Source: a virus
Lineage: Duplodnaviria; Heunggongvirae; Uroviricota; Caudoviricetes
Virus record (IMG/VR): IMGVR_UViG_2711768056_000010
DNA: 33,498 nucleotides
Reading direction: 5' to 3' (one strand)
How positions within the stretch are numbered: position 1 is the stretch's first letter; each line of letters opens with the position of its first letter. Of this stretch, positions 1,184-33,498 are shown one piece after another. The position numbers and the translations under genes were made by a program. The notes below the pieces were generated by a model. That model did not search any database. It was not told where the DNA came from and was given only the letters and a program-made list of their open reading frames with translations.

Positions 1184-1666
1184 ATGGAAGAACTTCACTT
1201 TGTTTACATCAATGCAAATGGTCGTATCGCTGTTCACTCTATACAGAGCATCAGTTATAGCGAAAATCATATACAGGGCATTTGTAAGAACACCGATCGA
1301 ATAAAAACCTTCCGAAAAGACCGCATTCTTAAACAGTACGATTCACCAGAACAAGCCATTCAGGAATGCGCGTCATTCCTCCCCGAAAGCTACTCACATC
1401 TCACTAAGCAGTCTGGTCCGAAAAAAAATACATTCGATGTGTGTTTCACCGGATTTAAGAAAGCAGATAAAGAAAGATTGGTTGATAAGGCGAATGAACA
1501 AGGATTAACGGTAAGAACCTCTATAACCCAAAGCCTTCAGATGCTCTGTTGCGGTTACAATGCAGGCCCATCAAAAGTATCGGCAGCCAGGATGAAAGGC
1601 ACAATCATCATAGATGAGCCTGGCTTTATACATTTTCTTGAAACGGGTGAGATCCCAGATGAATAA
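1184..1666 (+). CDS. Hypothetical protein with C-terminal BRCT-like domain (prophage cargo)
   Basis: ATG at 1184 preceded by AAGAGG; about 40% GC; C-terminal segment FTGF..ADKERLVDKANEQGLTV...GYNAGPSKVSAARMKGTIIIDEPGFIHFL aligns by eye with the BRCT domain of NAD-dependent ligase LigA. Confidence 0.55.
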   Translation: MEELHFVYINANGRIAVHSIQSISYSENHIQGICKNTDRIKTFRKDRILKQYDSPEQAIQECASFLPESYSHLTKQSGPKKNTFDVCFTGFKKADKERLVDKANEQGLTVRTSITQSLQMLCCGYNAGPSKVSAARMKGTIIIDEPGFIHFLETGEIPDE

Positions 1667-20187: not shown

Positions 20188-21954
20188 ATGAACACCACAC
20201 TGACACCCGCAGATCTCGATCCCCGTCGGCAGGCCATGCTGCTGTACTTTCAGGGATACCGCGTAGCCCGCATTGCTGAAATGCTGGGCGAGAAAGTTGC
20301 AACCGTTCACAGCTGGAAAAAACGCGACAAGTGGGGTGATTATGGGCCGCTGGATCAGATGCAGCTCACCACCGCCGCACGCTACTGCCAGCTCATCATG
20401 AAGGAGCACAAAGAAGGGAAAGATTTCAAAGAGATTGACCTGCTGGCGCGCCAGTCGGAGCGCCACGCGCGGATCGGCAAGTTTAACAATGGCGGCAACG
20501 AAGCCGACTTAAACCCTAACGTCGCCAACCGCAACAAAGGCCCGCGTCGTCAGCCGGAAAAGAACGTTTTCACCGATGAACAGATTGAGAAGCTGGAAGA
20601 AATCTTCCATTCCTCCATGTTCAACTATCAGCGCCACTGGTGGGAAGCCGGAAAAACCAACCGCATCCGCAACCTGCTGAAGTCACGCCAGATCGGTGCG
20701 ACCTTTTACTTTGCCCGTGAAGCCCTGATTGACGCCCTGCTTACCGGACGTAACCAGATTTTCCTTTCTGCCAGTAAGGCACAGGCTCACGTCTTTAAGC
20801 AGTACATCATCGACTTCGCCAAAGAAGTGGAGGTGGAGCTGAAAGGCGATCCGATGGTGCTTCCCAACGGGGCCACACTGTATTTCCTCGGCACCAATGC
20901 CCGCACGGCCCAGAGTTACCACGGCAACCTGTATCTGGATGAATATTTCTGGATACCGAAATTCCAGGAGCTGCGCAAAGTGGCTTCCGGTATGGCTATT
21001 CACAAGAAATGGCGACAGACCTATTTTTCCACGCCATCCAGCCTGACACACAGTGCTTATCCGTTCTGGTCCGGTGCGCTGTTCAACCGTGGGCGCAATA
21101 AAGCCGATAAGGTGGACATCGACTTGTCCCACAGCAATCTGGCCCCCGGCCTGCTGTGCGCAGACGGGCAATACCGCCAGATAGTCACCGTGGAAGATGC
21201 GGTACGCGGCGGCTGTAACCTGTTCGACCTCGACCAGTTGCGCATGGAGTACAGCCCGGACGAATACCAGAACCTACTGATGTGCGAGTTCGTTGACGAT
21301 CTCGCATCTGTGTTCCCGCTCAGCGAATTGCAGGCGTGCATGGTGGACAGCTGGGAAGTCTGGACCGACTTTCATGCACTGGCCCTGCGCCCGTTTGGCT
21401 GGCACGAAGTGTGGATCGGTTATGACCCGGCAAAAGGTACGCAGAACGGCGACAGCGCCGGATGCGTGGTGGTGGCACCGCCAGCCGTGCCAGGCGGTAA
21501 GTTTCGCATTCTTGAGCGTCACCAGTGGCGCGGGATGGACTTCCGCGCCCAGGCTGACGCCATCAAAAAACTGACCGAACAGTACAACGTGACCTATATC
21601 GGTATCGACTCAACCGGCGTCGGTCACGGGGTTTACGAGAACGTGAAAGCGTTCTTTCCTGCCGTCCGGGAGTTTGTCTACAACCCCAACGTTAAAAACG
21701 CCCTGGTACTCAAGGCCTACGACATTATCAGCCACCGCCGTCTGGAGTTTGACGCCGGACATACCGACATTGCGCAGTCATTCATGGCAATCCGTCGCGC
21801 CACCACCGCCAGTGGCAACCGCCCGACCTACGAAGCCAGCCGCAGCGAAGAAGCCAGCCATGCCGATCTGGCATGGGCAACCATGCACGCACTGTTTAAC
21901 GAACCGCTGCAGGGCGAGTCCGCCAATACCAGCAATATTGTGGAGATTTTTTGA
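20188..21954 (+). CDS. P: Terminase ATPase (large) subunit P
   Basis: 588 aa; P2 gpP-like; stop overlaps Q start (ATGA). Confidence 0.9.
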   Translation: MNTTLTPADLDPRRQAMLLYFQGYRVARIAEMLGEKVATVHSWKKRDKWGDYGPLDQMQLTTAARYCQLIMKEHKEGKDFKEIDLLARQSERHARIGKFNNGGNEADLNPNVANRNKGPRRQPEKNVFTDEQIEKLEEIFHSSMFNYQRHWWEAGKTNRIRNLLKSRQIGATFYFAREALIDALLTGRNQIFLSASKAQAHVFKQYIIDFAKEVEVELKGDPMVLPNGATLYFLGTNARTAQSYHGNLYLDEYFWIPKFQELRKVASGMAIHKKWRQTYFSTPSSLTHSAYPFWSGALFNRGRNKADKVDIDLSHSNLAPGLLCADGQYRQIVTVEDAVRGGCNLFDLDQLRMEYSPDEYQNLLMCEFVDDLASVFPLSELQACMVDSWEVWTDFHALALRPFGWHEVWIGYDPAKGTQNGDSAGCVVVAPPAVPGGKFRILERHQWRGMDFRAQADAIKKLTEQYNVTYIGIDSTGVGHGVYENVKAFFPAVREFVYNPNVKNALVLKAYDIISHRRLEFDAGHTDIAQSFMAIRRATTASGNRPTYEASRSEEASHADLAWATMHALFNEPLQGESANTSNIVEIF

Positions 21955-22994
21955 TGAAAGAACATATCGCGCCAGGCGAAACCGTAACTGCAGAAGAAAC
22001 TAAAAAACCCGTTGCGGAGGCTTTCAGCTTTGGTGATCCCATTCCTGTACTGGACCGCCGCGAACTGCTGGACTATGTGGAATGCGTACAGATGGATCGC
22101 TGGTATGAGCCGCCCGTCAGCTTTGACGGACTGGCGCGCACCTTCCGCGCCGCCGTGCACCACAGCTCCCCGATCAGTGTTAAGCGTGACATTATCAGCA
22201 GTACCTATATTCCACATCGCCTTCTCAGCCAGCAGGCATTTACCCGTTTTGTGCAGGACTATCTGGTTTTTGGTAACGCCTACCTGGAGAAACGCACGAA
22301 CCGCTTTGGTGAAGTTATTTCGCTGGAGCCTGCACTGGCAAAATACACCCGACGCGGGCTTGACCTTGAAACATACTGGTTTGTGCAATACAGCCTGACG
22401 ACACAGCCGTATCAGTTCACAAAAGGTAACGTCTTCCACCTGATGGAGCCGGATATCAACCAGGAGATTTATGGTCTGCCGGGTTACCTTTCTGCCATTC
22501 CGTCAGCTCTGCTCAACGAATCCGCCACGCTGTTTCGCCGCAAGTATTACATTAACGGCAGCCACGCAGGCTTCATCATGTACATGACCGACGCCGCACA
22601 GAACCAGGAGGATGTGAACAACATCCGCAAGGCAATGAAAAGTGCTAAAGGACCGGGCAACTTCCGCAACCTGTTTATGTACTCGCCTAACGGCAAAAAA
22701 GATGGCATTCAGATTATCCCGTTGTCGGAAGTCGCGGCGAAGGATGAATTTCTGAACATCAAGAACGTCAGCCGCGATGACATGATGGCGGCTCACCGCG
22801 TACCGCCGCAAATGATGGGCATCATTCCCAACAACACTGGCGGCTTTGGGGATGTGGAAAAAGCGAGCCGTGTCTTCGTCCGCAATGAACTGATGCCCCT
22901 GCAAAAGCGACTGCAGGAGCTGAATGACTGGCTGGATGAAGAGGTTATCCGTTTTGAAGCCTATGACTTAGGACTTAAGGGCAAACGAAGCTGA
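21954..22994 (+). CDS. Q: Portal protein Q
   Basis: P2 gpQ-like; ORF-track TTG start trimmed to ATG at 21954 with GGAG Shine-Dalgarno sequence. Confidence 0.9.
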   Translation: MKEHIAPGETVTAEETKKPVAEAFSFGDPIPVLDRRELLDYVECVQMDRWYEPPVSFDGLARTFRAAVHHSSPISVKRDIISSTYIPHRLLSQQAFTRFVQDYLVFGNAYLEKRTNRFGEVISLEPALAKYTRRGLDLETYWFVQYSLTTQPYQFTKGNVFHLMEPDINQEIYGLPGYLSAIPSALLNESATLFRRKYYINGSHAGFIMYMTDAAQNQEDVNNIRKAMKSAKGPGNFRNLFMYSPNGKKDGIQIIPLSEVAAKDEFLNIKNVSRDDMMAAHRVPPQMMGIIPNNTGGFGDVEKASRVFVRNELMPLQKRLQELNDWLDEEVIRFEAYDLGLKGKRS

Positions 22995-23155
22995 CATACT
23001 CATAACATCAATAACCGACCAACTCTCACAACGCCTCAGCAGCATTCTGCGGGGCGTTTCTTTTTGCCCTGACATCTTACCCCCCTCCACTAAATGAGGC
23101 CGCCAGCGGGCCAGAGGCTGTGCCGGATTTTGGCCATTTTACCCCGTTGCGCGCG

Positions 23156-23174
23156 CTCGTATCCCCGCCACGCC
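23156..23174 (-). other. Candidate cos cohesive-end site
   Basis: Minus-strand GGCGTGGCGGGGATACGAG; its first 13 nt match the P2/186 cohesive-end sequence as I recall it (GGCG[A/T]GGCGGGGAAAGCA-); located just beyond Q as in P2. Confidence 0.5.
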
Positions 23175-23217
23175 TGCCCGCTTTGTGTAGTGGTTTTCAT
23201 GCAGGTGCCTGATCCAC

Positions 23218-23243
23218 GCAAAAGCCCGCCAGTTCTGGCGGGC
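23218..23243 (-). terminator. Rho-independent terminator downstream of the 372-aa cargo gene
   Basis: GCCCGCCAG/CTGGCGGGC stem followed by TTTTGC on the minus strand. Confidence 0.65.
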
Positions 23244-23309
23244 CTTAGCAAAAACGATCCTCAAACGGTCATGCAAATTCAGGCAGCATAGGCATGCACT
23301 GTTGTTAGG

Positions 23310-24428
23310 TTAGTTCGTAATGCCAATTTCCTTCAAAACTTTAGCCATTTCCGTCTGACTTAACTTGTTCCTGAACAAAGTGAAATTTTTCATTTTTTCC
23401 GCTCGTTGCCCTTTTGAAATAGTAATCTTTCCTGATGCTGATAACTCAGAGTCAAAAAAATAACATATTGTTGAATTTGAATTCTCCATATTTGACTTGA
23501 TACAATTCCATATGCTTTCTTTTTTCATTTCACACATTCTAGGACCAAAAATGATCCCTTTAACAACATTAGCATCATGATGAAAAATATGTCCAATATT
23601 TCGATTTACGCGTCTTTGAACATGCCGCTCACTCCCTATTCCTGCATTTGCCTCCGGAATAAACATTCGATATTCAGCTTCATATCTCCAAAATCTATTT
23701 TTAGTTAAAAATAACTCTGCAACATTTGCGCTTGGGTCTAGAAGTGAAACCTCTTTAGCCTGATTACTATATTTTATTGGCTTAACTGGAAAATTAAATT
23801 TATCTGATGAAAATAAATTTTCTCTTAGCTTCATTCCAGTATAGGGTATACCATCAATATTAAAATCCTGCGTTTCATAAATCACAACACAACCACTAAA
23901 GCCAGCAGCATAATGCGCCCACATCATACGATCTAACGCATTAGCTGAAAATGACACACTGAATACTGCAGGAACTATTTTCCTATACAACCTTTCTTTG
24001 ATACTGTTCTCGCAAAGTGAAACCAAATATTGGCGTGGTTCAGGAATATTTCCATAAATAGCAGAATTAATCACATTGATAGGTAGTAAACCATCATCTA
24101 TGATCTTACGTATCTCATCAACGTGTGAGTCAAACAGGCTATCTAATGACTCAATGCTACTTTTTATTTTTTTTCCTCTAAAAATACGATTCAATCCCTT
24201 ATGTATTTTCAAATTACTCAAATCCAATATGTGACTCAAATTTTTATAGGATTTATCGCAAGGAGAACGCAATAAAATGTCCCATAATTTCAATTTATTA
24301 TCGAAGCGATAATCTATATTGAGATCATTGGGATCATTCAATTGCGCAGGAGCGGAAAAATATAATTCATTATAACGAATAGCTTTCTCAAAGAAGAAGT
24401 CCGGACGGTAATACTTGAAAAGATACAT
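23310..24428 (-). CDS. Orphan DUF2971-like protein (hotspot cargo; candidate defence/abortive-infection gene)
   Basis: 372 aa, markedly AT-rich; motifs LFKYY...ELYFSAP..LNDPND, MWAHYA and FWRYEAEYR resemble DUF2971 as I remember it; own upstream intergenic region and own terminator. Confidence 0.6.
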   Translation of the reverse strand: MYLFKYYRPDFFFEKAIRYNELYFSAPAQLNDPNDLNIDYRFDNKLKLWDILLRSPCDKSYKNLSHILDLSNLKIHKGLNRIFRGKKIKSSIESLDSLFDSHVDEIRKIIDDGLLPINVINSAIYGNIPEPRQYLVSLCENSIKERLYRKIVPAVFSVSFSANALDRMMWAHYAAGFSGCVVIYETQDFNIDGIPYTGMKLRENLFSSDKFNFPVKPIKYSNQAKEVSLLDPSANVAELFLTKNRFWRYEAEYRMFIPEANAGIGSERHVQRRVNRNIGHIFHHDANVVKGIIFGPRMCEMKKESIWNCIKSNMENSNSTICYFFDSELSASGKITISKGQRAEKMKNFTLFRNKLSQTEMAKVLKEIGITN

Positions 24429-24812
24429 GACATTACCTATAACATTGCAATATTAATAACCGTATGAAAACAGTTTGATTGTATTGATAATATCCTATTC
24501 TGCATATACCACAGTGTAAAGATTAATTTTAAATACCATATCCAACAGTAAATCATGTATCGACCGCCAGATAAGAAGCTTTTGAAAAACTTGGACGATA
24601 ATTAATCAAAAGCTCTTCCCATCCTGTATCCTCTATCTCACTCTTTTGGACATTGAAAGAAGCCCCTCTGATCGGGAATGATTGTTTCCAGCGTTTGACC
24701 ACGATATACAATATGATATTTGATGTCTTTTGATCAGATGGCTAACGCCTCGCATAGCTCGTTGTTCAACCTTGCTGACGCCAGAAGCAAGTTCAGACGC
24801 CAGCAACGTTTC

Positions 24813-25046
24813 TTAATGCAGCCAGCTGTCGTCTTCCCACACCTTCTGCATAATTTTCATCACTTGTTTCCTTTCTTCGTCCAGTTGCAGTCCGGTCAGT
24901 TCCACACCGTTAGAGCTACCTTTACGGATACGAATTACCGTTTTGGGATACAGGGGGCGCAGATTGCGGTAAAGCTCTGATTCAAGGGCGTCCAGGGTAG
25001 ACTGGCTAATCTTCTGCTCTTTATCGATCATTATTTCAATGCGCAT
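24813..25046 (-). CDS. dinI: DinI-like protein
   Basis: MRIEIMIDKEQKISQSTLDALESEL...QKVWEDDSWLH resembles DinI (MRIEVTIAK...WESADDWF); ORF-track start trimmed to ATG at 25046 with GAGGGGA Shine-Dalgarno sequence. Confidence 0.75.
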   Translation of the reverse strand: MRIEIMIDKEQKISQSTLDALESELYRNLRPLYPKTVIRIRKGSSNGVELTGLQLDEERKQVMKIMQKVWEDDSWLH

Positions 25047-25056
25047 AAAAGTCCCC

Positions 25057-25245
25057 TCAGCTGATGACATCCATTGAGCGGTTGTATTCGTGGCTTCTGA
25101 TTTTTGCCATGAGTTCATCTGTCAGTTCAGAAACCCACTGCAGGGCCAGCCCCTTCTCTTCATCACTACACTCACTAGCCGCTACAAGCTTAAGAAAAAA
25201 ATCAATGCGCTGGAGCTTCAAAGACTCCAAAAAATAGTCCTGCAT
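25057..25245 (-). CDS. Small SOS-controlled protein, possible Tum-like antirepressor N-terminal module
   Basis: 62 aa from ATG at 25245 with a strong AGGAGG Shine-Dalgarno sequence; LexA box 45 bp upstream; 10 nt upstream of dinI-like gene; role inferred from position equivalent to 186 tum. Confidence 0.5.
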   Translation of the reverse strand: MQDYFLESLKLQRIDFFLKLVAASECSDEEKGLALQWVSELTDELMAKIRSHEYNRSMDVIS

Positions 25246-25288
25246 CTTTCCTCCTATGACACCACAAGCAATACTGTATGCATAACCA

Positions 25289-25304
25289 CTGTTTATATTT
25301 ACAG
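25289..25304 (-). promoter_or_regulatory. LexA (SOS) box
   Basis: CTGTTTATATTTACAG (CTGT-N8-ACAG with AT-rich spacer), flanked as ACTGT...ACAGTA. Confidence 0.75.
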
Positions 25305-25398
25305 TATATAATAATCTTACTGATGTAAAACGTTTTTTTACGTTCATCAGCCTGATATGCCTGGTATTATTAAGAGCACGAATTGTTAATCCGCGTAA

Positions 25399-27813
25399 TT
25401 AATACAGGTTCCGCCACTTATCATCTTCCTGCAAACGCTGGTTCCGATAGAAAATACGCAGGCCTGCTCCTGACGGAATGCTGCCGCCGCGAAGGAGTAA
25501 ATCGACCTCTTTCTCGCTGCCATCAAATCCTCTGGACTTCAGTTCATAGACGAGCTGCTGTCGTTGATGGTCTGTAATTCGCTGTTTGTAGTCTCTACGC
25601 CGTTTCGGTTTCACCAGGCGTAACCTTGCAGCCAGTTCCCGGCGTTCTTTTTTGTTCATACTGTGCAGGTAATCGTGCAACTCCTTGTCATCCATACGGG
25701 TGATATCCGTTCTGGTATCCCCATCAGCTGATTTGTCTTTCCCTTGTTGGTACAAATTTTCAGCAAGGGGACAGTTATTGCCACGAGTCCAAGGGGCGCA
25801 AGCGCCCTGGTCGGCTGCCGCCTCCTGAACGTCAACGGCTTTACGAACCATTTTCCACTTCACTGCATGAGTGCAGATCTTGCCCTCTGCAATGGGTGAC
25901 CAGATGCCATAAATACGAATGCCGTGATCGCCATAGGCGGTCGGCTCTTCGTTGATTTCATAAGCGGTTCTGATGAGGTGATATTTACGGGGAACCAGTA
26001 CGCCGCCCTGCTTCATGATGTAGGTGGCAAAACAACCAGCATCAGCAGCAGCCAGAATGGCATCAAGACGCGGGTTATCCAGTACCGGCGCACCTGCTTT
26101 TTTGTCACCCTGTTGCCTTGCCGCCTGACCAGCCAGCAAGCGAAGTTCACGGTAAGCCTGACGCCCCGGAATACCAAAGAAGCGGAATTGCTGAACACGA
26201 TGCAGAGACGCCCAGGCATTCACGTATTCAGCGTTATCACGCAGAGATTTACCCGTTTCCTTGCTGATCTCGCCAGCCAGACCACGACCGTCAATGTTCT
26301 TACTGATATATTTCGCGATGTAGCTTGTCGGCGTTCCTTTGCGCGGGTTAATCAACTCAGACTTAAAGCGCGGCCCAGTGTTATTGCCCAGCTCCTCGCG
26401 GTCTTCACGGATGGCAAACTTACGCAGTAATGCAGTGATGGCACGGCGGTCTTTTTTGCGCATGAAACACAACAGGTGCCAGTGAACTGTGCCATCATGA
26501 TGCGGCTCAGCCACCCGCACGCCATACCAGCGCAACCCGGCTTTGTGCATCGCCTTACGAAATGCAGCAAACATGCCGACCAGATAATCGCTGCTTTGTC
26601 TTACCGTCGCGTTTGTCCAGGTCGGGTTTGGTCTGCCGTTATTTAGCGTGGAATGGAAACGCGACGGACAGGTGATAGTGTAGAAAACGGCGCAGTCACC
26701 GCGCATTTCCGCGATAAGCTCCAGACCTTTAACACAGGCCATCATCTCATTGCGGCGATGCGCAGGGTTGCTGCTGCTGGCGTTTACCACATCCTCCATG
26801 TCCAGCGTGTCGCCGTCTTCGTTCACCAGTTCATGAGAACGGAAAAACTCCAGCGACTTACGGCGCTGCTCACGTTTATGCATCACGGCTTCATAGCTGA
26901 CATAAGGAGATGCTTTTTTGCTGACCAGGCAAACAGCGCGCAACTGCTCTTCCCGCCATTCGCAACGCATCTTCCATAATTTCCGATACCACCAGTCGGC
27001 GCACAACATACGCGCCAGCGAACCCGGAATGAGTTCATAGAGCACGGGTTTACGGCGGTTTCTTTTCCGACGGAGTTGCTCAAACGCAGGTGGGATGACA
27101 TCCAGACGCAGGGTTTCCGCTGCCACCTTTTCCCATGTCTTGCGGATTTCTTCTGGCTTAACGTCATCGGTGGCATACAAATCACCACAAGCTGCATCAA
27201 GGCACATACTCATATGCGCAGCTACCAGGGTGGACAGGCGTTTCACCTGATCCTGACTCATTTCAGGCAGGATCAGCAGGCCGTCCAGCCCTTCATGGCT
27301 TGCCATAAAGCGAAAAGATGCAGATAGCTGACTGTCGCGTACATGCTCCAGTCGTTCCAGGCATGGCTTAATCGTCTCACGTAAATAGCGGGAATAAGCC
27401 TTTGGCCTGCCCAGGCTGCTGAAGTATTCAATACGTTGCATCAGCGGCTTGCTGATATGGGAAGGCTGGGCGTTGACGTCCGCCAGAATGACCATGTCTG
27501 AATTAAAACGCTGCTGCTCATGCGCCAGCTTTGCCCGGCTAATGAGCTTATCCTGCTCCATTTCGCGCTGGACAGGATCACGTGATTCATTAAAGAAATA
27601 ACGCTCCCAGACCTGATCACTCAGTGCCTCGCGGCGCAACTGTTCCTGCTCGTTATCGGCAGCGTACAGAGTGATCAGGTTTGAAAGCGTAGAAACCGGC
27701 GCAACTTCCGCCGGGTCCAGATAAGGGTTAATGGCCTTTTTCGGGCTGTTCCATGAGAATGCTGCGGCAGCCTCGTTAAAGCCGCAGCAGTTGTTCATAT
27801 CGGCATGACTCAT
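25399..27813 (-). CDS. A: Replication initiation endonuclease A (rolling-circle)
   Basis: 804 aa, in the position of P2/186 gpA; start ATG overlaps dam stop (ATGA). Confidence 0.85.
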
Positions 27814-32271: not shown

Positions 32272-33498
32272 ATGACTCTCCATCAAACTTTATCTAAAGA
32301 ATTAAGAGATTTATTTGTTAGTATTTTAAGACGTTCTCTTTTTCGCCCCCCCATCAAAATAAATGGGGATATAGTCTCTGATTTTTCAAACAGATGCGAG
32401 CAGTTCAAAGAGTGCCTAAATGAATACATTTGTGATAACAATAATGCTGCTTCCGAAAGAGTTAAGCCAAGAATTAAAACTATTGAAAAAATACAACATG
32501 GATTAACTAATTCTCTTAAAGCATTTTTATCTGGCGACATTAAAGGAGCCTACGATATTTTTGATGAAGTTTTATCATACCCTACTGTCTATAGACATCT
32601 AAGAAGAATATCCATTCCACTAAAAGAAATATGTAATAAGCACAAGCCTTTATTCAGGGTAAGAAAGTCAGATAGACCAGTCGTAACAAGAAAGGAAATA
32701 TTTCATATCCCATTCACTCATCGACATCTTGTCAATGCTCAACGCTACTCCGTTGCAGGTTTGCCATGCCTTTACTTAGGTTCATCTCTCTATATATGCT
32801 GGCAGGAAATGGATAAACCTGACTTTGATAAATTATACCTATCATCATTTATATCTTGGGATGAGGAATCTTATATTTTAAATTTAGCTGCAGATTTTCT
32901 TTACAGTAGAACCGCTAAAGGATTTTACGGTGATATTAGTAATAGAGATAACCTCATTAAAATATCATATTTAACTTTATGGCCTCTGATAATTGCATGT
33001 AATTATTTAAAGCAGAATGAAAACTCTTCATTTAATCAAGAATATATCATCCCAAATTTGTTAATGCAGTGGATAAGTCGACTTGAAGATAGAGCTATTG
33101 TCGGCATAGCATATCGCTCAACAAAAATAAAAAGAACAGCAAACTCACACTTAGCAACTAATGTCGTCTTGCCTCCAAAAGTAAACTATGAAGATACAAT
33201 CACAAAACCTTATTGTCAGAAACTATTGTCAATGTTTGAGTTTACTCAACCTGTATCATGGCAGGTTTTGAAAACATTAGACTATAAAATTGATAATGAA
33301 ATAAATCAAGAGCAAGAAAAAGCAATTCATTTACTAAAACAGAAAGAAAGATTAAGTGGCATACAAGATTTAAATGAAGATCTTATAAACCTTTATCCTT
33401 TAACAGACTTCTACAAGCTAGAACAGTGCATGGATCGCCTGCTGCAGTATGATGTACTTGAGATAAAATCTGGCGGCACTTTGGCGGCAGAGCATTAA
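32272..33498 (+). CDS. Hypothetical cargo protein with RES-like motif
   Basis: 408 aa, strongly AT-rich; starts 4 nt after int stop with AAGGA Shine-Dalgarno sequence; RYSVAGLPCLYLGSSLYICWQE resembles the Arg...Glu...Ser core of RES domains; stop codon is the last triplet of the window. Confidence 0.55.
   Translation: MTLHQTLSKELRDLFVSILRRSLFRPPIKINGDIVSDFSNRCEQFKECLNEYICDNNNAASERVKPRIKTIEKIQHGLTNSLKAFLSGDIKGAYDIFDEVLSYPTVYRHLRRISIPLKEICNKHKPLFRVRKSDRPVVTRKEIFHIPFTHRHLVNAQRYSVAGLPCLYLGSSLYICWQEMDKPDFDKLYLSSFISWDEESYILNLAADFLYSRTAKGFYGDISNRDNLIKISYLTLWPLIIACNYLKQNENSSFNQEYIIPNLLMQWISRLEDRAIVGIAYRSTKIKRTANSHLATNVVLPPKVNYEDTITKPYCQKLLSMFEFTQPVSWQVLKTLDYKIDNEINQEQEKAIHLLKQKERLSGIQDLNEDLINLYPLTDFYKLEQCMDRLLQYDVLEIKSGGTLAAEH

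Follow-up and report, generated by a model that had tools for sequence, protein, structure and literature searches.

Why does a P2-like prophage carry a single, very AT-rich gene between its replication module and its cohesive end, and what could the product of this gene do? The question is raised by the IMG/VR virus record IMGVR_UViG_2711768056_000010, a stretch of 33,498 nucleotides that is called the window in the following. The whole window is a complete P2-like prophage adjoining smpB and ssrA. The gene of interest is located at positions 23310-24428 on the minus strand, starts with ATG, and encodes a protein of 372 amino acids (aa). A preliminary description of the same DNA had noted this AT-rich open reading frame (ORF) and had proposed it as a single-gene candidate for anti-phage defense or abortive infection of the DUF2971 type. 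The coordinates of the ORF and its low GC content were both verified. The proposed role as a candidate is supported by a match of the protein to the PADLOC family PDC-S31, by the variable slot in which the gene resides, by the defense-type contexts of its relatives, and by the precedent of the DUF2971 protein Aristaios. In addition, the mechanism, which had been left unspecified, may be narrowed to an ADP-ribosyltransferase (ART) fold resembling DarT and Tpt1, as predicted by the fold comparison of an AlphaFold2 model.

The gene has a GC content of 0.333 and a GC content at third codon positions (GC3) of 0.287, compared to a mean GC content of 0.513 for the whole window. The DinI-like gene, gene A, the portal gene and the terminase gene have GC contents of 0.46-0.56 and GC3 values of 0.53-0.70. 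Based on this difference (GC3 of 0.29 versus 0.53-0.70 in the neighbors), the gene was acquired horizontally and is of foreign origin. It is under purifying selection, with ratios of nonsynonymous to synonymous substitutions (dN/dS) of 0.07-0.22; the least saturated pair has a dN of 0.11 and a dS of 0.65. In every allele examined the ORF is unbroken.

Family and predicted fold of the 372-aa protein

The motifs of the protein had previously been described as DUF2971-like. At the level of the family this was borne out, i.e., all 47 aligned relatives match the Pfam family DUF2971 (PF11185), the best of them with an E-value of 2.6e-8, and many have a precomputed PF11185 assignment. For the 372-aa sequence itself the match was borderline (21.7 versus 22.0 bits, E-value 5e-4); it covers positions 1-89 of the 89 positions of the model and residues 169-255 of the protein. 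The RefSeq name for the gene is also DUF2971 domain-containing protein. The match to PDC-S31 was much clearer: four hidden Markov models (HMMs) of this family match, the best of which is PDLC04990 with an E-value of 1e-23 over residues 3-312, followed by PDLC04994 (8.8e-17), PDLC04991 (1.3e-14) and PDLC04992 (1.2e-5). Nothing beyond PDC-S31 was found in PADLOC at E-values of up to 1, and Pfam searches at E-values of up to 10 across the 47 members yielded DUF2971 plus noise. Thus, a confident homology to a characterized non-defense protein, which would have argued against the proposed role, was not found in the Pfam and PADLOC profile searches. The PHROGs match is phrog_1762, the function of which is not annotated, and NCBIfam contains no family for the protein. 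Based on the signature residues and the HMM matches at the family level, the protein is assigned to DUF2971, and based on the PADLOC matches to PDC-S31.

The gene had also been called an orphan, which does not hold. Besides the matches to PDC-S31 and the DUF2971 superfamily, about 67 clusters of full-length relatives of about 370 aa were found, which range from 99% down to 30% identity and occur in Enterobacterales, Pseudomonas and Paraburkholderia. A sharp isolation of this family of about 370 aa was an artefact of a word-indexed search and was discarded; an exhaustive HMMER search revealed a continuum, in which the subfamily grades into the DUF2971 superfamily with 438 representatives at E-values of up to 1e-10 and 6,845 at E-values of up to 1e-3. 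According to a published survey, DUF2971 is present in thousands of species (PMC12522546). In two further tblastn searches, phage records yielded one weak partial match on an unannotated metagenomic contig, and the PLSDB plasmids yielded only distantly related DUF2971 genes with marginal E-values, none of them from Lactococcus.

Next, residue conservation was compared at two depths. In the alignment of the 47 sequences, which have 29-82% identity to the 372-aa protein, 41 positions are invariant. A broad alignment comprised 44 DUF2971 proteins with 17-62% identity, most of them with 17-31%, and in this case N31, D32, W170, Y173, G179, Y220, K243, W247, E250, E252, R254 and G295 are invariant. 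The DUF2971 signature residues (NDP, W-x-H-Y, K..W.YExExR and GxxFG) are, thus, shared with bona fide members of the family. Even in proteins with only 17-24% identity, Y173 and E250-x-E252 do not vary.

The AlphaFold2 model, which was calculated from the alignment of 47 sequences, is of very high confidence, with a mean predicted local distance difference test value (pLDDT) of 93.1 and a predicted template modeling score (pTM) of 0.86. Fold comparison of the model retrieved DarT proteins (Thermus DarT with a score of 7.3, Thermosipho DarTG with 6.8, and E. coli DarT1 with 6.3) and Tpt1/KptA RNA 2'-phosphotransferases (7.2, 6.6 and 5.5). They were followed by many further ART toxins, among them TreX, SopF, PARP15, scabin, CARDS, LT and pertussis toxin. 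In total, about 25 of the top 60 matches are ART-fold proteins, and about 130 of the 372 residues align. Foldseek searches against PDB and BFVD yielded nothing significant. When PDB chains were searched by sequence and with the profiles of the family and of the broad DUF2971 alignment, only noise was obtained, and neither profile reached a solved ART by sequence. Taken together, there is moderate support from the model that the core of the protein has an ART fold, the nearest folds being those of DarT and Tpt1/KptA, which are enzymes directed at nucleic acids.

The active site of the ART superfamily is marked by three motifs: [H/R] on beta1 (motif I), Y or S-x-S on beta2 (motif II), and E, ExE or QxE on beta5 (motif III). 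Two conserved stretches are candidates for ART motifs. The first is Y249-E250-A-E252-Y-R254 (codons 23667-23684, minus strand), a candidate for motif III (ExE), in which E250, E252 and R254 are invariant in both alignments. In the model E250-x-E252 is located at the junction of the helix 245-250 and the strand 252-259. The second is W170-A-H172-Y173 (codons 23910-23921, minus strand), which would provide the tyrosine of motif II; across the broad DUF2971 family W170 and Y173 do not vary, while H172 is conserved to at least 90%. For DUF2971, ExE has been described as motif III and a strictly conserved tyrosine as motif II (PMC12522546). Another candidate for motif II is S157-x-S159 on the strand 154-161, which is conserved in the subfamily only and is followed by the W-A-H-Y helix. 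In the model the order of the strands and helices that carry the conserved residues is that expected of an ART core, and these residues may line an NAD+ pocket. In a different explanation the gene would still encode a defense protein or a toxin, the likeness of the fold would be superficial, and N31, D32, K243, E250, E252 and R254 would form the site of another chemistry, e.g., that of a nuclease or hydrolase. This is considered unlikely.

The ART-fold core proposed here is accompanied by additional elements. Residues 45-150 (codons 23979-24296, minus strand) form a basic insert with an isoelectric point (pI) of 9.45 that is largely helical in the model, with helices at residues 46-54, 74-83, 92-112 and 131-148. 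This insert is gapped in DUF2971 proteins of 250-280 aa. It is a candidate for a sensor or regulatory module, which is speculation at this stage. The whole protein is also basic (pI of 9.2).

An acquired cassette in the cos-proximal slot

The boundaries of the acquired DNA were revealed by a blastn comparison with the Yersinia phage MLG42 (Peduoviridae), in which the slot is essentially empty. Because the window positions 23299 and 24742 are only 7 bp apart in MLG42, the insertion comprises 23300-24741, i.e., 1,442 bp with a GC content of 0.336 in the cos-proximal hotspot slot of the prophage. In a Klebsiella Gegevirus the slot is filled by three other genes. The window, MLG42 and the Klebsiella phage have the same anchors at the two junctions, namely CATGCA(C) towards cos and CTAACGCCTCGC towards the DinI-like gene. 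The cassette is rare: it is present in 26-27 of 5,426 complete E. coli genomes, while the flanks are matched in 1,260 genomes. Its distal part (24530-24745) never occurs without the 372-aa gene in E. coli, as it was found only in the 26 genomes with this gene. The gene is, thus, not part of a conserved core, as would have been the case if it were found in all related phages.

Upstream of the 372-aa gene, and also on the minus strand, follow the DinI-like gene (24813-25118, PF06183 with an E-value of 1e-22), a small ORF matching phrog_698, and gene A, which encodes the P2 A-type replication endonuclease (25399-27813). The portal gene Q (21951-22994, plus strand) and the terminase gene P are located beyond the 3' end. 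Between the cassette and the portal gene lies a cos-like core, GGCGTGGCGGGG (23163-23174, minus strand), which is the single match in the window; positions 23162-23203 align to the right end of P2 and overlap the annotated cosR, the right cohesive end. The previously described location of the gene between an SOS/replication module and cos was confirmed by these features. Rfam has no match within 22900-25500.

In P2 the equivalent region between gpA and cos carries tin and old, and this locus is a published defense hotspot (Rousset et al. 2022, PMC9122126), so that the earlier recognition of the tin/old locus as a hotspot for defense cargo agrees with both the comparison with P2 and the literature. 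As described for the hotspot, the gene lies between gpA and gpQ beside cos, and the occupancy of the site varies among related phages, from empty in MLG42 over three other genes in the Klebsiella phage to tin and old in P2. The supplement of Rousset et al. lists DUF2971 among the arrangements of the P2 hotspot, and the main text reports no test of such a gene (PMC9122126).

A second cargo slot was observed across cos, between cos and the portal gene, in related P2-like prophages. It corresponds to 22995-23140 in the window, 4342-5316 in L001, 7526-9179 in L009 and 4851-5120 in L008. Its occupants include DprA in E. coli TKEC21-59, a SinR-like gene in the Klebsiella phage, and in L009 and L012 a pair encoding a weakly HipA_C-like protein and a HIRAN-domain protein; in the window this second slot is empty. 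The exact order of portal gene, cos segment and DUF2971 cassette (window 22900-23146) is reproduced by no complete E. coli genome. In all 27 E. coli carriers the similarity to the window breaks off at about 23146-23150, in some cases at least through cargo of the second slot, and, thus, the cassette and the portal-side module recombine independently.

Besides the 372-aa gene the cassette contains no intact gene, in line with PDC-S31 as a single-gene family. The preliminary description had attributed to it an AT-rich upstream region of 385 bp of its own. This turned out to be correct for the proximal part at about 24429-24605 (about 180 nt), which contains a conserved promoter, and incorrect for the rest, which consists of phage backbone (24742-24812) and the remnant of another gene (about 24606-24739). 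A sigma-70-type promoter (TTTACA, 17 nt, TAGGAT) was predicted by a scan at 24492-24520 on the minus strand. It is followed by a 5' leader (24429-24491, minus strand), in which a ribosome-binding site, AGGTAA, can be read a few nt before the ATG. An alignment of five alleles from P2-like prophages, a Salmonella integrative and conjugative element (ICE) and a Lonsdalea chromosomal island revealed that CTTTACA and the -10 element are conserved, with diverging flanks. Because the promoter is kept across these contexts while the surroundings diverge, the gene travels with its own promoter. A TTAYRGGT motif close to the ribosome-binding site is present in four of the five alleles and is absent from that of L009.

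The remnant at about 24606-24739 (minus strand) is a decayed small phage gene of the phrog_2100 family (E-value of 1.5e-39), as revealed by alignment with L010, L009 and L012. Its start codon is changed from ATG to ATC, it contains in-frame stop codons, and about 100 nt are deleted. Elsewhere, the gene is an intact ORF of 86 aa in L010 (5576-5836), has a nonsense codon in L009, and has a frameshift in L012. The remnant is not a partner of the DUF2971 gene. A 52-aa ORF at 24553-24711 was considered as an antitoxin or regulator and was rejected. It is a wrong frame over the decayed phrog_2100 gene, and this gene is itself disrupted in three out of four contexts, in all of which the DUF2971 gene is intact, and is absent from the ICE and the island. 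The 52-aa "hypothetical protein" (WP_239812891.1), which is annotated in two RefSeq genomes, is probably spurious.

Further variation was seen around the gene. In nine of the 26 E. coli carriers (H109-H117) the segment equivalent to 24530-24745 is split in two; it spans 337 bp instead of 216 bp, which indicates an extra insertion of about 121 bp upstream of the promoter. In the genome CH4794 an IS4-like element, ISVsa5, is located beside the 372-aa gene. An imperfect hairpin of about 9 bp with a long loop and no T-tract, TTGCTGGCG ... CGTCAGCAA, was seen by eye at 24770-24812 on the minus strand. It belongs to the conserved backbone just past the stop codon of the DinI-like gene. It is not among the terminators called by the scan, and transcription of the early operon, thus, seems able to continue into the cargo slot during lytic growth.

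Downstream of the gene, a hairpin is present at 23218-23243 on the minus strand, with a GC-rich stem of about 11 bp, a 4-nt loop and a TTTT tract. It had been regarded as the gene's own terminator. The hairpin is real, as judged by folding, but it lies outside of the insertion, between the cargo slot and cos, in a part of the backbone that is kept where the slot is empty or holds other cargo. The segment 23141-23299 is conserved to 82-87% in MLG42, the Klebsiella phage and another P2-like prophage, and the stem is identical in the Klebsiella phage and the E. coli relatives. Because the hairpin is backbone and the stop codon of the 372-aa gene is only 10 nt away from the boundary of the cargo, the cassette has no terminator of its own and borrows the hairpin of the backbone. 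The hairpin has a tract of only four Ts and was not reported by the consensus terminator scan. Probably, it ends transcripts leaving the slot whatever the cargo is.

The genomic contexts of relatives were also compared. In further prophages, one of them from Citrobacter, this P2 slot is filled by alleles with 69-71% identity. An allele with 62% identity lies between the conjugation modules of the Salmonella ICE. The Lonsdalea allele (63%) is found in the chromosomal island beside genes for SIR2 and DUF87/HerA-like proteins, insertion sequence elements and integrase fragments, and an allele with 41% identity is found in a lambdoid prophage beside DUF7380/EMARD_N, GIY-YIG and HNH genes. An allele in Pseudomonas is located among ordinary chromosomal genes. 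No conserved partner gene was found in these contexts (P2 slots, ICE, lambdoid prophage, Lonsdalea and Pseudomonas). The gene is, thus, a mobile, self-contained unit that is present on several kinds of mobile elements.

Two other ORFs of the window were noted. The first is strongly AT-rich (GC content of about 0.32), encodes 408 aa, and is located at 32272-33498 on the plus strand; it starts 4 nt past the stop codon of the integrase gene and extends to the final base of the window. Neither Pfam nor PADLOC contains a match for it, and it may be another accessory or defense cargo at the integrase end of the prophage. No att repeat was found in the window. The second encodes 160 aa and is located at 1184-1666 (plus strand), just downstream of ssrA (tmRNA, 698-1060). 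It has no Pfam match; its C-terminal half weakly matches the C-terminus of PADLOC PDC-S48 (E-value of 4e-7) and marginally SspE.

Proposed function and alternative explanations

The explanation favored here is the following. The cassette at 23300-24741 is horizontally acquired cargo with one intact gene, which would be transcribed from its own conserved sigma-70 promoter, and the transcript would probably end at the hairpin supplied by the backbone. Because the promoter is the gene's own, expression would be possible in a lysogen, in which the early operon of the phage is repressed. In the lysogen the protein would be inactive, and infection by another phage would activate it. The activated protein would use nicotinamide adenine dinucleotide (NAD+) to ADP-ribosylate a target that is a nucleic acid or is associated with transcription or replication. 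This modification would stall gene expression or replication of the phage, and the infected cell would arrest growth or die, i.e., abortive infection would occur. As no antitoxin gene is present, control must be intrinsic; it would be built into the single protein, plausibly via the subfamily-specific, basic helical insert of about 100 residues. On balance, we lean slightly towards this complete chain, i.e., towards a single-protein, NAD-dependent abortive-infection effector. We are more confident in the general statement that the gene is cargo of a defense type and less so in the particular target. The data show the boundaries of the cassette, the conservation of the promoter, the membership in the family, the predicted ART-like fold, the conserved Tyr and ExE residues, the purifying selection and the presence on several kinds of mobile elements, and we infer that the protein is catalytic, what it modifies, what triggers it, and that it acts in defense at all.

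Several points weigh against this explanation. A toxic ART would have to be kept silent with no antitoxin present. No residue can be assigned clearly to motif I, as the invariance of the candidates K5 and R8, which lie on or just after the first strand (2-7), is limited to the subfamily. The Pfam score of the protein is 0.3 bits under the gathering cutoff of 22.0 bits. Furthermore, PDC-S31 is one of 145 candidates that are explicitly called untested by their authors, and the literature, including the supplements of Vassallo et al. 2022 and a 2026 preprint on P2/P4, contains no experiment on the 372-aa gene, its subfamily or PDC-S31.

Instead of acting in defense, an ART-fold enzyme could serve the mobile element in another way, i.e., by counter-defense, by takeover of the host, comparable to Alt, ModA and ModB of T4, which modify host proteins, or as a toxin in competition or addiction. 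The ART fold would fit equally well, and the gene is found on phages and the ICE, where anti-defense and takeover genes also gather. It also follows the early A-DinI operon on the same strand, and because the scan revealed no terminator between them, expression during lytic growth is possible as well. The own promoter, however, is conserved also in contexts that are not phages, and one relative, in a chromosomal island, adjoins genes for SIR2 and HerA-like proteins. In addition, PDC-S31 is defined by embedding in BREX, DISARM or restriction-modification (RM) loci, the P2 slot is known for exclusion genes (PMC9122126), and Aristaios, the one tested DUF2971 protein, is a defense gene (PMC11381338). 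Therefore, a role in counter-defense, takeover or competition is regarded as improbable.

A role directed at eukaryotes was also considered, in which the gene would be a virulence effector of lysogenic conversion, i.e., an ART toxin against proteins of a eukaryotic host. Such a role has been suggested for certain DUF2971 proteins from pathogens. A survey in Legionella predicts that about 18% of the DUF2971 proteins are secreted effectors, and homologs are present in enterohemorrhagic E. coli, Salmonella and Vibrio (PMC12522546). Nevertheless, the N-terminus of the 372-aa protein, MYLFKYYRPDFFFEK..., has no hydrophobic stretch resembling a signal peptide, as judged by eye, and is predicted to form the first core beta strand. 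Furthermore, no secretion-system gene is linked to the gene in the contexts examined, the relatives have defense-type contexts, and the carriers include E. coli from wastewater, rivers and animals as well as commensal isolates, the plant-associated genera Lonsdalea and Pectobacterium, and Pseudomonas. A virulence effector is, thus, highly improbable. The gene might also be a selfish moron, a passenger in a recombination hotspot that decays or has no function, as might be suggested by the phrog_2100 gene visibly decaying in the same cassette. This is hardly credible in view of the intact ORF in all alleles examined, the dN/dS of 0.07-0.22, the 41 invariant residues and the conserved promoter.

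Comparison with known systems

The effector favored here shares its region with tin and old of P2, which are located between gpA and cos. Both are lysogenic-conversion genes that P2 does not need for growth and that act in the exclusion of other phages (PMC9122126). The proteins are unrelated to the 372-aa protein, and Old is an ATPase-TOPRIM nuclease. The direction of transcription is also different: the P2 cargo is transcribed from a cos-adjacent promoter back towards A, whereas the 372-aa gene is transcribed towards cos. With PDC-S31 the gene has in common the HMM match and the organization as a single-gene system. What defines the PDC families is that their genes are embedded within loci of BREX, DISARM or type I RM systems, and PDC-S31 was inferred from such loci, while the gene analyzed here resides in a prophage hotspot.

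The nearest solved folds act on single-stranded DNA (DarT) and on RNA or DNA phosphates (Tpt1/KptA). In contrast to DarTG, the cassette contains neither a DarG macrodomain antitoxin nor any other partner gene; its neighbors are the DinI-like gene and cos/portal, and the relatives elsewhere are likewise solitary. No DarT HMM of PADLOC or Pfam matches, the identity over the aligned residues is 8-12%, and the protein is about 160 residues longer than DarT, with the helical insert and further C-terminal strands. The 372-aa protein does not belong to the DarT family, although its mode of action may resemble that of DarT. Tpt1/KptA has no sequence similarity to the protein, and Tpt1 is a housekeeping enzyme of tRNA splicing and not mobile cargo. 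The catalytic tetrad of Tpt1 is Arg-His-Arg-Arg.

A more specific version of the favored explanation is an antitoxin-free immune ART that senses and kills with one protein, acts on DNA or RNA like DarT or Tpt1, and is held inactive by the insert, which then switches it on upon sensing a phage-derived cue. This version is proposed tentatively and is considered doubtful. If true, the control logic would be unlike that of DarTG among ARTs acting on nucleic acids, and it would be the first biochemical function in Enterobacteria for the DUF2971 superfamily with its thousands of proteins. DUF2971 is a very large family without a member of demonstrated biochemical activity, and the 372-aa gene adds a member to this catalogued, largely uncharacterized family and is not a new category. 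The questions opened are whether DUF2971 proteins are truly ARTs, what they modify, and how a potentially lethal ART is controlled without an antitoxin. The allele is a compact entry point, with 1.4 kb, a mapped native promoter and no partner gene, in the best-understood defense hotspot of a model phage family. If a DarT-like activity with a phage trigger were found, a large family would be annotated and PDC-S31 would be raised from a candidate to a validated system, which would be useful and not field-changing.

The closest validated system, compared by description, is Aristaios, a DUF2971 protein of 316 aa encoded on a Lactococcus plasmid, which confers abortive infection as a single gene (PMC11381338) and interferes with the transcription of Skunavirus (PMC13064643). 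No other DUF2971 protein has been shown to act against phages (PMC11381338, PMC13064643). The two proteins differ in size and origin, i.e., 316 aa and a Firmicutes plasmid versus 372 aa and an Enterobacterales prophage. Common to both are a single gene on a mobile element, the DUF2971 domain, and a predicted ART fold, and the architecture of the Aristaios type, a single gene with its own promoter on a mobile element, is also seen in the 372-aa gene.

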